Positions 48,110-49,962 of a stretch of DNA of 64,000 bases are shown here, one piece after another. How positions within the stretch are numbered: position 1 is the first letter of the stretch; every line of letters starts with the position of its first letter. The translations under genes and the position numbers were made by a program. Location of the stretch: positions 14,045-78,044 of the forward strand of contig CAZSKP010000009.1 of the NCBI GenBank assembly GCA_964607485.1, given 5' to 3'. Below the pieces are notes generated by a model. It saw only the letters and a program-made list of their open reading frames with translations. It searched no databases and was not told the DNA's origin. The DNA is from an uncultured bacterium (GTDB lineage: Bacteria > Abyssobacteria > SURF-5).

Positions 48110-49699
48110 ATGTCCTACATCTTCATGAAAATACTCGAACGCAAGCCGGCGACATACGACGCCGGAATCGCCAAATACGCCGCCGGCGACTTCGCCGAAG
48201 TGCGCGACGAGATGCTTTCGCTCGTGAGCCCCGGCGACCGCGTGCTCGACGTGGGGTGCGGGCCGGGCGCGTTCGCAGTCGAATGCGCAAAGAGGGGCGC
48301 GCGGGTCGATGCGGTCGATATCAATCCGCAGATGCTCTACGTCGCCGACCTGGCAGCAAAGAAGGCAGGGGTCGAGAACAAAATAACGTTTCAGCATGCA
48401 TCCGCAACCGACGTCGAGGCCGACCGCGGCGCATTCGACCTCGTCGTCTTTTCTCTCTCGATGAGCGAGCTCAGAGAGGTCGAGCAGTGGATCGCCATGC
48501 ATTCCGCGTTCGATTTCTTGAAACCGGGCGGAAGGCTCGTGGTGGCCGACGAGGTCGTTCCGCAGGCGTTCGCGCAGAGGACGTGGTACCATCTCCGCAG
48601 GCTGCCGCTTCTCGCGATAACGTACCTGATAACGCGGACGACCACACGGCCCGTTCGTGAAATGGAAGAACGGTTTCGCGCGTGCGGCTTCGAGGTCGAG
48701 CGGACCGAGGCATATGAACGCGGCAGCCTGAAGCTCGTCGTCGGCCACCGCATGGAGCGGAGACCCGCGCCGGAGGTCTTATCACCGGACAGGCTGCCGC
48801 GATGGGTCGAGACGCTGGGCAAAATTTACAGCTACCTCACGCTGGCGTTCAATGATGTCCCCATACGAACCGGCCTGTATAAGTTCGGCAATCCCACGGG
48901 GGAATCGCCGGTGCTCGTGACCGCAAACTATCTCTTGACCTTCACGTCGGTCAAGAAGCATCTCCGGGGGCTGGATTGTTATCTGCTCGTCGTCGATACG
49001 CGCGGAATCAATGTGTGGTGCTCGGCGGGGAAGGGCAACTTCTCGGCCGAGGAGATTCATACCTCCTTGCGCGCGACACGAGCCGAGGATGTTACCGAAA
49101 CGCGCAAGCTGATCCTGCCGAAGCTCTCGGCCAACGGCGTCAAGTACCGCGATGTCGAAAGGCTCAGCGGCTGGAAGGCGGCATTCGGCCCCGTGTATGC
49201 GCGGGACATACCCGATTACCTGGCCAACGGCTTTGCCGAGGGCGAACGGATGAAGCGGGTGAGGTTCGAGCTGGCCGACCGGCTTTGGGTCGGCCCGCCG
49301 TTTGCGCTGTTCGTGGCCTTCTGGTTCCTGTTGCCACTGCTGATTTTCCACAGCTTGTATTCTCCCGCGATCCCGGCCATTGCGCTCGCGGCCGGCCTCA
49401 TCTTTCCGGCCGCGTTCTATATCCTGCCGACGGACCAGTTCTTCAAGAAAGGGCTGGTTCTGGGGCTTGCGGGAGCGGTAGGAGCGGGCATCTTGCTGCT
49501 CGTTGCGGGCGCGCCAGCCAAGGACATAGTCCAGTGGGCGCTCATCATAGTCGGCGTCACGATGTTCGTGGCGATAGACTTCTCGGGAATGTCGCCGGTG
49601 AGCAATTACAGCAAAATAAGGGAGGAGTATTACGTCGTCCTTCCCTTGTTGGTGTTGATAGTGATAAGCTATATAGTAGTGAGTTATCTGTGGAGGTGA
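48110..49699 (+). CDS. hgcA: HgcA-like corrinoid protein with N-terminal class I SAM-methyltransferase domain in the same frame
   Basis: Residues about 40-150 carry methyltransferase motifs (VLDVGCGPGAF, DLVVFSLSM, LKPGGRLVVADE); residues about 290-310 carry LVVDTRGINVWCSAGKGNFS (HgcA cap-helix signature, Cys codon 49019-49021); C-terminal about 130 aa are multi-helix hydrophobic. No in-frame stop between the two parts. Confidence 0.8.
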   Translation: MSYIFMKILERKPATYDAGIAKYAAGDFAEVRDEMLSLVSPGDRVLDVGCGPGAFAVECAKRGARVDAVDINPQMLYVADLAAKKAGVENKITFQHASATDVEADRGAFDLVVFSLSMSELREVEQWIAMHSAFDFLKPGGRLVVADEVVPQAFAQRTWYHLRRLPLLAITYLITRTTTRPVREMEERFRACGFEVERTEAYERGSLKLVVGHRMERRPAPEVLSPDRLPRWVETLGKIYSYLTLAFNDVPIRTGLYKFGNPTGESPVLVTANYLLTFTSVKKHLRGLDCYLLVVDTRGINVWCSAGKGNFSAEEIHTSLRATRAEDVTETRKLILPKLSANGVKYRDVERLSGWKAAFGPVYARDIPDYLANGFAEGERMKRVRFELADRLWVGPPFALFVAFWFLLPLLIFHSLYSPAIPAIALAAGLIFPAAFYILPTDQFFKKGLVLGLAGAVGAGILLLVAGAPAKDIVQWALIIVGVTMFVAIDFSGMSPVSNYSKIREEYYVVLPLLVLIVISYIVVSYLWR

Positions 49700-49704
49700 C
49701 GGTA

Positions 49705-49962
49705 ATGATAGCGCTGGATCGGGAAAAATGTGTAGGCTGCGGCGATTGCGCGAACGTCTGTCCGCAGCAGTGCTACACAATGGGCGACGACCACAAGAGC
49801 GTGCATGCATTCCCCGACAGATGCATGGAGTGCGGCGCATGCAGCCTCAACTGCCGCGCGCAGGCCATCTCGATGGAGGCCGGGCCCGGCTGCATCGTTT
49901 ACATAATAAAGGAACAGCTGTTCGGCAAAACCGCCGCGGCGGACAGCGAGACCTGTTGCTGA
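49705..49962 (+). CDS. hgcB: HgcB-like 2[4Fe-4S] ferredoxin
   Basis: 85 aa; CVGCGDCANVCP and CMECGACSLNC cluster motifs, C-terminal SETCC; GGAGG 9 nt before ATG 49705. Confidence 0.85.
   Translation: MIALDREKCVGCGDCANVCPQQCYTMGDDHKSVHAFPDRCMECGACSLNCRAQAISMEAGPGCIVYIIKEQLFGKTAAADSETCC

Follow-up and report, generated by a model that had tools for sequence, protein, structure and literature searches.

The locus described here lies within a stretch of 64 000 nucleotides (the window) from an uncultured bacterium of the Abyssobacteria. Its main gene (48110..49699, forward strand) is a single uninterrupted frame of 529 amino acids (aa) that encodes a CpaM–HgcA-like fusion protein, comprising a complete class I SAM-methyltransferase (MTase) domain, an HgcA-type corrinoid domain and five transmembrane helices; the other two forward frames contain 28 and 4 stops. 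A gene for an HgcB-like ferredoxin follows and a gene for an ArsR-family regulator precedes it. An earlier note, made from the sequence alone, had described an hgcAB-like pair whose HgcA carries an MTase with no stop before the corrinoid domain, and this one-frame organization was borne out.

The N-terminal part (aa 2–213; 48113..48748, forward strand) is a CpaM domain, as anticipated in the note, which had placed a complete MTase (VLDVGCGPGAF and other motifs) in the first ~210 codons. It matches the NCBIfam family NF043040, named corrinoid protein-associated methyltransferase CpaM and rated 'hypoth_equivalog' by NCBIfam, over profile positions 1–215 of 216 (245.9 bits, E 2.8e-73; cut-off 180 bits), and Pfam also matches it with Methyltransf_25 (68 bits) and Methyltransf_11. 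The hallmarks of class I SAM-dependent MTases were found, namely the GxGxG motif I (VLDVGCGPG) and an acidic residue, D70, ending strand 2. Across 67 fusion proteins, with identities down to ~30%, residues G49, G51, D70, D110, S119, E120, E148 and P151 are invariant, among them the SAM-binding residues G49, G51 and D70. Identity between the window protein and its orthologues is practically the same in the MTase and corrinoid domains (80% vs 79% for L002; 68% vs 68% for L003), which, together with the invariant SAM-binding residues, indicates that the MTase is under functional constraint. Strands and helices alternate in this region of the AlphaFold2 model in a Rossmann-type arrangement, and a Foldseek search matched the domain to RebM, MitM and TleD, all of them class I MTases.

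A linker (aa 214–235; 48749..48814, forward strand), bounded by the end of the CpaM profile match at aa 213 and the beginning of the HgcA match at aa 236, connects the MTase with the helix with which the HgcA-like part begins. There, the corrinoid-binding (CdhD/CFeSP-like) domain (48815..49270, forward strand) was recognized by Pfam CdhD (PF03599; aa 254–370, 57 bits), by the NCBIfam HgcA model NF040863 and, in a sequence search, by the CFeSP large subunit 4djd_C (E 6e-10). The NF040863 match spans aa 236–524 with 228.3 bits (E 1.3e-67), whereas the equivalog cut-off is 275 bits and canonical proteins scored 418.8, 426.4 and 452.7; the alignment to family models proposed in the note thus gave an HgcA-type match, albeit one below the equivalog threshold. 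The cap helix NVWCSAGK (49010..49033, forward strand) contains Cys304 (49019..49021), and N301, W303 and C304 are invariant across all fusion proteins, while the final Lys is found in only part of the window's clade. Hydropathy and the AlphaFold2 model both delineate a five-helix transmembrane domain (aa ~388–528; 49271..49696, forward strand), with modelled helices at aa 388–412, 420–438, 444–465, 470–492 and 500–528. The cap-helix signature and multi-helix C-terminus reported in the note are therefore present. The model of the whole fusion has a mean pLDDT of 90.6 and a pTM of 0.86, and such a pTM in a three-domain protein argues for an MTase that would be packed rigidly on the HgcA-like part. 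For the fusion model, Foldseek ranked the HgcA model 9a0b_A first (E 4e-18, 36% identity), with SAM MTases next; a sequence search gave no experimental HgcA structure, and by fold the integrative model 9a0b was the only HgcA structure retrieved.

A frameshift or missing stop in sequencing or assembly could in principle merge an independent MTase gene with hgcA, and cpaM and HgcAB-like genes do stand separately in other lineages. Beyond this we found nothing in favour of such an artefact, and we rejected it. An independent Logan assembly (SRR14802574) contains the same 529-aa protein, 100% identical; the 3.5-Mb Hydrogenedentota record CP070779.1 encodes a 529-aa orthologue (77% identical) with the same gene order as the window, and further 529-aa orthologues occur on many other contigs. 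The alternative forward frames are closed, and the linker region is modelled with confidence (mean pLDDT of 88–94 in blocks over aa 211–240, with a helix at 231–243). The identical protein and the orthologues likewise counter the separating stop or frameshift envisaged in the note, and we give the artefact practically no credence. The note had also raised internal initiation near Met215, for which we found no support: the linker is well modelled and, on inspection of the sequence, no Shine–Dalgarno sequence lies upstream of Met215, so that the sequence holds no hint of a second start. The database search for the same domain order suggested there retrieved ~78 protein clusters with this architecture from many phyla (identity 32–91%). 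Among the matches listed, the bacterial carriers were Hydrogenedentota, Abyssubacteria, Poribacteria, Anaerolineae, Blastocatellia, Polyangiaceae, Spirochaetaceae and Deferribacteres, and the archaeal ones Promethearchaeum and Thorarchaeota. The fusion is genuine and is conserved in bacterial and archaeal phyla.

The HgcB-like 2[4Fe-4S] ferredoxin (85 aa, Fer4 families; 49705..49962, forward strand) is translationally coupled to the fusion; its ATG starts 5 nt past the stop codon of the fusion, with GGAGG 8 nt upstream. In agreement with the note, it is a two-cluster ferredoxin ending in CC, with two CX2CX2CX3C motifs (CVGCGDCANVC and CMECGACSLNC), GPGC and a terminal ETCC. The window thus contains the C(M/I)ECGA motif, the equivalent of Cys73 (GPGC), the C-terminal Cys pair and the adjacency to hgcA that are expected of HgcB. 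Its score against the HgcB model NF040864 was 77.2 bits, below the cut-off of 99, compared with 112.4 for a canonical HgcB from L014. The C-terminal Cys pair, which in HgcB is implicated in Hg handling, is missing in the nearest relatives (L002, L003, L091 and L092) and is therefore not a clade-wide trait; nor does it correlate with the cap-helix Lys, as L002 and L091 have the Lys and lack the pair. A ferredoxin of 81–91 aa follows the fusion in all two-gene (type B) loci examined.

Upstream, as the note had indicated, lie an ArsR-family regulator and a candidate sigma-70 promoter. The ArsR/SmtB-family gene (47722..48087, forward strand) encodes 121 aa from its ATG, with an alternative GTG start at 47689. 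It has the winged-helix HTH_5 domain of the family (PF01022, 35.8 bits; NF033788, 67.8 bits, cut-off 55), and the same 121-aa call was obtained on an independent contig. Homologues are found immediately 5' of the fusion in L002, L091 and L092, while no arsR gene was called at this position in L003. The homologues have in common the Cys in QYCHD and FFKCLNDETRQ, and three of the four end in CC. The regulator, which has conserved cysteine pairs, probably makes expression sensitive to redox state or to a thiophilic metal(loid). The promoter candidate, TTGACA-17 nt-TAATAT (47652..47680, forward strand), lies upstream of the arsR-family gene and agrees with the consensus at 10 of 12 positions. It is the best site in 47300..50800, a region with 6 such sites compared with 1.1 expected in shuffled sequence, and it is promoter-like by its strong consensus resemblance, on which its designation as putative is based. 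We detected no inverted repeat of ≥8 nt near this site that could serve as an operator, and searches of the whole window yielded no cobalamin riboswitch or other RNA at the Rfam gathering score and no tRNA. Downstream of the pair, the molybdopterin-type oxidoreductase mentioned in the note was confirmed as a small cytoplasmic protein of the sulfite-oxidase fold (196 aa, PF00174 149.8 bits; 50008..50598, forward strand). Only the window (with the identical contig L001) and L002 have it after the pair, and L003, L004, L006, L091 and L092 lack it; we therefore rejected it as a core part of the system and regard it as a lineage-specific neighbour.

The association of CpaM with HgcA-like proteins takes three interchangeable forms: an adjacent separate gene, a fusion to the HgcA-like protein, and a triple fusion that also includes the ferredoxin. 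A separate cpaM adjoins the HgcA-like gene in L047, L053, L060, L061, L063, L072, L073 and L090. In L061, the separate genes both pass their cut-offs (CpaM 262.6 bits, HgcAB_like 399.3), and for the stand-alone CpaM P0122 the HgcA-like gene starts 18 nt downstream. Triple fusions were found in L008 and P0055, the latter scoring 270 bits for CpaM and 369 for HgcAB_like. At 52 canonical hgcA–hgcB loci, by comparison, there was no MTase match within ~4 kb, and CpaM is absent there. The impression given in the note that this architecture is unrecorded for HgcA did not hold, as the CpaM family NF043040 exists and PGAP already labels some such fusions CpaM. In our literature search, no paper used 'CpaM' or 'corrinoid protein-associated methyltransferase' in this sense, and a search on hgcA/HgcA with methyltransferase or fusion found no description of a CpaM–HgcA-like fusion. 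In a 2025 paper, the model of a Hydrogenedentes 'HgcA' shows an additional globular domain that was left unexplained (PMC12953829).

These arrangements bear on whether the MTase might instead act on a small-molecule or metalloid substrate of its own, in the manner of ArsM or UbiE, with the fusion ensuring co-regulation and not corrinoid methylation. The domain shows weak similarity to the ArsM, UbiE/UbiG and BchM models (46–56 bits), and the upstream ArsR-family regulator would suit such a role. However, these matches lie far below the cut-offs and reflect the generic SAM-binding core only. C50 is the sole conserved Cys in the MTase domain, and the ArsM-type cysteine triad is therefore absent. 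The link to HgcA-like proteins in three architectures, together with the absence of CpaM at canonical loci, also argues for a physical partnership, and the N-terminal 20 residues, highly conserved in all CpaM architectures, suggest a common partner or substrate. We consider an independent substrate very unlikely.

We placed the HgcA-like domain in a neighbour-joining tree (Kimura distances, 183 sequences, 273 columns; unrooted, no outgroup), with the position of the root taken from Lin et al. 2023 (PMC10083202). The window clade was monophyletic in 59/59 bootstraps and grouped with the CpaM-associated lineages, outside the canonical HgcA clade (NJ, unrooted), and canonical HgcA split from all CpaM-associated lineages in 46/59 bootstraps (78%; NJ, unrooted). 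The window clade occupies an intermediate position, with canonical HgcA on one side and fused HgcAB-like proteins on the other.

The note had called the genes a mercury-methylation pair. The hgcAB-like anatomy stands, whereas mercury methylation is not established, given the missed cut-offs, the non-canonical clade and the negative results for tested fused-HgcAB relatives. If the pair were nonetheless a functional mercury methylase, canonical in function and with the extra domain as an accessory or regulatory element, the organism would be an Hg methylator. Several features are in line with this. NVWCSAGK is one of six cap-helix motifs accepted as 'high stringency', and together with CMECGA on one contig it satisfies the consensus protocol (PMC10087281), so that the window pair passes the 'high-stringency' motif test for both hgcA and hgcB. 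The five transmembrane helices and the GPGC and terminal CC of the ferredoxin also agree with this role, an ArsR-like gene lies upstream of hgcAB in Desulfovibrio and Pseudodesulfovibrio strains as well (PMC7438021), and the paper on the Hydrogenedentes 'HgcA' bearing an additional domain reports it as a putative methylator (PMC12953829). Against it, both proteins fall well short of the NCBIfam equivalog cut-offs when measured against canonical proteins, and the clade is not the canonical one. Moreover, the cap-helix Lys and the ferredoxin Cys pair are not conserved in the closest relatives, and cultured carriers of fused HgcAB, the only tested members of the wider lineage, do not methylate Hg (PMC10087281). 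A canonical mercury methylase is therefore unlikely, while Hg(II) as such is a possible methyl acceptor of the system.

We propose that the locus is a self-contained corrinoid methyl-transfer module belonging to a CpaM-associated sister lineage of HgcAB, and regard this reading, including the following mechanism, as probable on balance. The cofactor would first be brought to the Co(I) state by low-potential electrons from the ferredoxin. SAM, bound by the CpaM domain, would then donate its methyl group to Co(I); SAH would be set free, and the resulting methyl-Co(III) would have Cys304 as its lower ligand. Finally, an acceptor at the membrane face, thiophilic or electrophilic in nature, would receive the methyl group as a carbanion or radical, in line with the proposal for HgcA. 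In 2024, purified canonical HgcAB was reported, unexpectedly, to be methylated at Co(I) by SAM, with electrons passing through HgcB and a Cys serving as lower ligand (PMC11588087). Since canonical HgcAB takes the SAM methyl without CpaM, a dedicated loader is chemically unnecessary (PMC11588087). It is possible, if somewhat doubtful, that CpaM is a dedicated SAM:corrinoid methyltransferase of the HgcA superfamily and that the window clade, which retains the HgcA- and HgcB-type hallmarks NVWCSAGK, CMECGA and GxGC, is an active metal(loid) methylase, possibly of Hg(II), with a built-in loader. The suggestion in the note, that the protein uses a methyl group derived from SAM or has a built-in role in cofactor repair, remains the best reading of the fusion.

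SAM-driven repair in MetH is an established precedent, and by analogy CpaM may be a repair-only module that remethylates accidentally oxidized cobalt with the help of an electron from the ferredoxin, the catalytic methyl group coming from another donor. The chemistry, SAM and reduced cobalt, would be the same as in the module proposed above, and a ferredoxin always adjoins. However, in the loci read, no other methyl-donor enzyme (of the pterin-binding MeTr, MtaB or MttB type) was called beside the fusion, and the cluster of one relative holds its own RACo-type corrinoid activase, so that repair can be a separate function. In addition, the turnover donor in canonical HgcAB is SAM (PMC11588087), and the class I fold of CpaM is unrelated to the MetH activation domain. 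We rate a repair-only role as rather unlikely and favour the methyl-transfer module.

The natural fusion of a SAM MTase with an HgcA-like protein, together with the fusion–fission pattern seen in many phyla, provides independent genomic evidence for SAM-to-cobalt transfer as a theme of the superfamily, and the fusion offers a tractable single-chain system for studying this step. If CpaM is indeed a dedicated loader, it would represent a single-polypeptide model of how the SAM methyl reaches cobalt in HgcAB, and a lineage present in many uncultured phyla, including Asgard archaea, would have to be added to or removed from methylator counts. Because these genes pass the motif criteria despite belonging to a CpaM-associated sister lineage, metagenomic surveys can count them as methylators; a check for CpaM in the same protein or next to its gene would offer hgcA surveys an easy way to filter out such genes or to mark them for testing. 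A clade with an ArsR-type regulator that is placed between canonical HgcA and fused HgcAB-like proteins is also a good place in which to seek the original substrate.

Compared with known systems, the window resembles canonical HgcA/HgcB (for example, Pseudodesulfovibrio mercurii ND132; NF040863, NF040864) in its CdhD-like corrinoid domain, cap helix with Cys, five C-terminal transmembrane helices, adjacent two-cluster ferredoxin with CMECGA and GxGC, and upstream ArsR-like regulator; the terminal CC of canonical HgcB is likewise matched by the window's ferredoxin. Unlike canonical HgcA, the protein has an N-terminal CpaM domain of 213 aa, and its HgcA-like domain shares ~33% identity with canonical HgcA, compared with a mean of 49% between canonical proteins. 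The HgcAB-like fused proteins (NF043039; for example, Pyrococcus furiosus Q8U2U9), with a stand-alone CpaM adjacent, share the CpaM family with the window. In both, CpaM partners an HgcA-like membrane protein with a Cys-on corrinoid and a ferredoxin module, and both fall on the same side of the HgcA tree. In NF043039 systems, however, CpaM is separate and the ferredoxin fused, while in the window CpaM is fused and the ferredoxin separate. The window's ferredoxin has the HgcB-type CMECGA and GxGC, both of which the fused tails lack, and the window protein scored 218 bits against NF043039, over profile positions 10–282 only (cut-off 285; true members 369–399).

More distant parallels exist in other corrinoid systems. 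The reactivation module of MetH (AdoMet domain plus flavodoxin) resembles the window system, as we infer it, in joining a SAM module and a cobalamin domain in one polypeptide and in methylating reduced cobalt with the help of a low-potential electron carrier. The MetH AdoMet domain has its own fold, to which CpaM, with structural matches that are all class I MTases, is unrelated. Furthermore, MetH uses SAM for repair only, with methyl-tetrahydrofolate as the turnover donor, is soluble and has a His as cobalt ligand, whereas the window protein has a Cys. In the Wood–Ljungdahl pathway, CFeSP (AcsC/CdhE and CdhD) has a homologous corrinoid-binding domain (PF03599; 4djd_C) and a separate methyltransferase, MeTr, loads Co(I); a RACo-type activase, as in the cluster of one relative, is a further likeness. 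However, MeTr is a pterin-binding TIM barrel that uses methyl-tetrahydrofolate, while the donor domain of the window protein is a SAM MTase, and CFeSP is soluble, without the cap-helix Cys ligand or a membrane domain. Finally, cobalamin-dependent (class B) radical SAM methylases and TsrM are similar to the proposed system in that the methyl group passes from SAM to Co(I) and from methyl-cobalamin on to the substrate. These enzymes combine a Rossmann-type B12 domain with a radical-SAM TIM barrel whose cluster is site-differentiated, whereas the window system has a class I MTase as its SAM domain and a ferredoxin whose two clusters each have four Cys ligands.

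The fusion gene occupies 48110..49699 (+) in a single frame of 529 aa, and the remaining two forward frames across it contain 28 and 4 stops. Pfam searches matched class I methyltransferase families at aa ~26-200 (Methyltransf_25, 68 bits) and CdhD (PF03599) at aa 254-370 (57 bits). The cap helix NVWCSAGK lies at 49010..49033 (+), with Cys304 encoded at 49019..49021, and hydropathy and the structure model each place five transmembrane helices within aa 388-528. All the features named in the earlier note, namely a methyltransferase domain, an HgcA-like part with a multi-helix C-terminus, a ferredoxin, an ArsR-family gene, a promoter-like site and a molybdopterin oxidoreductase, were recovered using sequence, Pfam and NCBIfam analyses. 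No Shine-Dalgarno sequence was seen before Met215, which leaves the internal initiation considered there without sequence support.

An artefact that joined two genes into one frame was rated very unlikely, and four lines of evidence agree that the fusion is real. The same 529-aa protein, identical throughout, was called on the independent Logan assembly SRR14802574. A 529-aa orthologue, 77% identical, is found on the 3.5-Mb Hydrogenedentota record CP070779.1 (locus L002), where the gene order matches that of the window: thioredoxin, 65-aa ORF, arsR, fusion, ferredoxin and molybdopterin oxidoreductase. Hydrogenedentota is also the source of the closest full-length relative. A database search retrieved ~78 protein clusters with the methyltransferase plus CdhD architecture (32-91% identity), with annotated sources in Hydrogenedentota, Poribacteria, Abyssubacteria and Anaerolineae. 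Among the matches listed for species-representative genomes, fusions or linked cpaM genes occur in Promethearchaeum, Thorarchaeota, Blastocatellia, Polyangiaceae, Spirochaetaceae, Deferribacteres and 'Deltaproteobacteria'.

The N-terminal domain is a member of the CpaM family and not a generic methyltransferase. The NCBIfam model NF043040, titled 'corrinoid protein-associated methyltransferase CpaM', covers aa 2-213 over its entire profile with 245.9 bits against a cut-off of 180; this NCBI-curated family is defined by association with HgcA-like corrinoid proteins. The architecture, called unusual in the earlier note, is on record already, both as the CpaM family and in PGAP names, where some fused proteins (P0036 and P0053) are called CpaM, and is not categorically new. 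A published model of a Hydrogenedentes 'HgcA' has an unexplained extra globular domain that was not recognised there as a SAM methyltransferase (PMC12953829), and our literature search found no paper on CpaM or tying it to SAM-dependent HgcA methylation.

Based on the loci compared, there are four types of gene arrangement. Type A has a separate cpaM directly upstream of an HgcAB-like gene with fused ferredoxin (L047, L053, L060, L061, L063, L072 and L073); in L061 both the CpaM (262.6) and the HgcAB_like (399.3) scores are above cut-off. In type B, CpaM is fused to the HgcA-like protein and the ferredoxin of 81-91 aa is separate (the window, L002-L004, L006, L010, L011, L091 and L092). Type C is a triple fusion (L008 and P0055, the latter scoring 270 for CpaM and 369 for HgcAB_like), and type D is the canonical hgcA-hgcB pair, for which none of the 52 loci had a methyltransferase match within about 4 kb. 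A profile-free search of 1.84 billion representatives with the CpaM domain retrieved 364 proteins at E <= 1e-10; 22 of the best 150 are fusions of at least 480 aa, and most others are stand-alone proteins of 205-235 aa, such as P0122, 18 nt downstream of which an HgcA-like gene starts. This pattern of fusion and fission provides strong evidence for a joint function of CpaM with the HgcA-like protein and ferredoxin; an independent activity of the methyltransferase domain, of the ArsM or UbiE kind, was rated lower.

Variants of these arrangements were also observed. The Asgard loci L010 (4016..5656, Promethearchaeum) and L011 (2550..4301, Thorarchaeota) encode methyltransferase-HgcA-like fusions with separate ferredoxins that end in Cys-rich tails (…DSCCG and …GCCG, respectively), and the methyltransferase domain of L010 scores 131.9 bits against CpaM, short of the cut-off of 180. 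A Nitrospirota MAG (L009, 5001..6934) encodes an HgcA-like protein with the cap helix NVWCSAGE and without CpaM, which groups with the non-canonical sequences in the tree; the product of the next gene, 291 aa long, joins a two-cluster ferredoxin to a DJ-1/PfpI domain.

The invariant core of the locus is the fusion and the ferredoxin. The ferredoxin gene (49705..49962, +, 85 aa, two-cluster and HgcB-like) begins 5 nt past the fusion stop codon, with GGAGG ahead of it, and its product carries CMECGAC, GPGC and a terminal Cys-Cys. This Cys pair, a hallmark of HgcB encoded at 49954..49959 (+) by the last two codons, is, within this clade, confined to the window, being present in none of the four closest orthologues (L002, L003, L091 and L092), and does not track with the cap-helix Lys.

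Upstream lie an ArsR/SmtB-family gene (47722..48087, +; NF033788, 67.8 bits) and a candidate sigma-70-like site, TTGACA-17-TAATAT, at 47652..47680 (+), the best of the region. Homologous arsR genes are found directly ahead of the fusion in L002 (5526..5894), L091 (3586..3987) and L092 (3547..3912); none was called at that position in L003, and a TetR-family gene takes its place in L006. Cysteines in QYCHD and FFKCLNDETRQ are common to the four ArsR homologues and three of them share a C-terminal CC (K[AS]CC[KR]), whereas they do not share the Cys of GMCVAEI, which occupies the usual alpha-3 position. This pattern suggests an atypical sensory site, and the regulator probably responds to a thiophilic metal(loid) or to redox state. 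Divergent from arsR is a 68-aa ORF (47338..47544, -) without Pfam match, ~80% identical across the window, L002, L003, L091 and L092 and thus more conserved than the fusion; in every case it lies immediately ahead of the operon (arsR-fusion or fusion), and it is often preceded by a thioredoxin-2-like gene (46892..47341, -, in the window).

Beyond the core, the neighbourhood varies. Of the loci compared, just two have a molybdopterin oxidoreductase gene after the pair, the window (50008..50598, +, 196 aa; PF00174, 149.8 bits) and L002 (7932..8540); both proteins are small (196-202 aa) and cytoplasmic, with a sulfite-oxidase fold. Synteny with the 'Candidatus Abyssubacteria' contig L003 extends over 43889..55120 of the window. 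The genes in common are those for TetR, thioredoxin and two PNPOx-like proteins, the small ORF, the fusion pair, an M14 peptidase and an ORF of ~490 aa that has no Pfam match. The synteny suggests that the window derives from Hydrogenedentota or Abyssubacteria, and the closest full-length relative makes the former the more probable. A convergent URO-D-family gene (PF01208), absent from the window, lies downstream in L002 and L003; this family includes MT2-type methylcobamide methyltransferases. In L091 (6235..9590, the locus of P0016, whose fusion is 66% identical), after the ferredoxin gene come two more genes for methyltransferases of class I and one for a reductive activator of corrinoid enzymes of the RACo type (domains Fer2, RACo_linker, RACo_middle and RACo_C_ter). 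The L092 locus has a gene for a B12-binding radical SAM protein about 1.5 kb past that for the ferredoxin. Searches of the 64 kb for tRNA genes and for Rfam families at gathering score, the cobalamin riboswitch among them, found none.

In canonical HgcAB, both HgcB clusters relay electrons that take cobalt to Co(I), which is methylated by SAM and not by methyl-tetrahydrofolate; methyl-Co(III) then takes the cap-helix Cys as a ligand and passes its methyl group to Hg(II) (PMC11588087). HgcAB is also reported to dehalogenate halomethanes (bioRxiv 10.64898/2026.04.26.720869). By analogy, the window protein probably uses the same relay, in which the CpaM domain would serve as the SAM-binding, methyl-presenting module. 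Among 67 proteins with identity down to about 30%, the SAM motif keeps G49, G51 and D70 without exception, the methyltransferase and corrinoid domains are equally conserved between orthologues (80% vs 79%; 68% vs 68%), and no other methyl-donor enzyme was called beside the fusion among the loci compared. An AlphaFold2 model built from 67 homologues (mean pLDDT 90.6, pTM 0.86) has a well-ordered linker, and the pTM of this three-domain chain suggests that the methyltransferase packs in a defined way against the HgcA-like part. In a Foldseek search of the PDB with the model, the top match was 9a0b_A, an integrative model of HgcA (E 4e-18, 36% identity); class I SAM methyltransferases, among them RebM, MitM and TleD, ranked next. 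Across all architectures, conservation of the first 20 residues is strong and suggests that they share a partner. Set against a methyl-loading role is the ability of canonical HgcAB to accept the methyl of SAM without any CpaM. The main rival, a MetH-like role of the domain in repair only, was rated lower; since a RACo-type corrinoid activase sits in one relative's cluster, repair can be a separate job. Methyl presentation by CpaM, the preferred reading, bears on how the methyl of SAM gets to cobalt in the HgcAB superfamily.

Whether the protein is an HgcA is answered yes by motif and no by family model and tree. With NVWCSAGK and CMECGA both present on this contig, the pair would be classed as 'high-stringency' by a consensus protocol (PMC10087281). 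Scores on the family models do not place it in the canonical families: the HgcA equivalog NF040863 gave 228.3 bits over aa 236-524, below its cut-off of 275 and compared with 419-453 for canonical proteins, the 'HgcAB-like fusion protein' model NF043039 gave 218 over the same residues (cut-off 285), and the ferredoxin scored 77.2 on the HgcB model (cut-off 99), compared with 112 for a canonical HgcB. A neighbour-joining tree of the corrinoid and membrane region (183 sequences, 273 columns) set canonical CpaM-less HgcA apart from every CpaM-associated lineage with a bootstrap support of 46 out of 59 replicates and placed a small group without CpaM (group E) on the CpaM-associated side; the clade of the window was monophyletic in 59/59, outside the canonical group. 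The reading as an ordinary Hg methylase whose extra domain is accessory was accordingly rated lower, and the distinction bears on which metagenomic 'hgcA' matches are true methylators. Our tree agrees with the two-clade structure of Lin et al. 2023, who set the root between the clades (PMC10083202); their alignment was trimmed of its 'first 327 poorly aligned positions' (PMC10083202), a step that may have concealed the CpaM domains. The HgcA-like domain of the window has an identity of about 34% with canonical HgcA and of about 30% with HgcAB-like proteins, compared with an average of 49% among canonical HgcA proteins themselves, and many close relatives within its clade have Glu for the final Lys of the cap helix. 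Since window-type ferredoxins retain CMECGA and GxGC, unlike the ferredoxin tails of types A and C, from which both are absent, this clade appears, on sequence features, to occupy an intermediate position, with the canonical form on one side and the fused HgcAB-like forms on the other.
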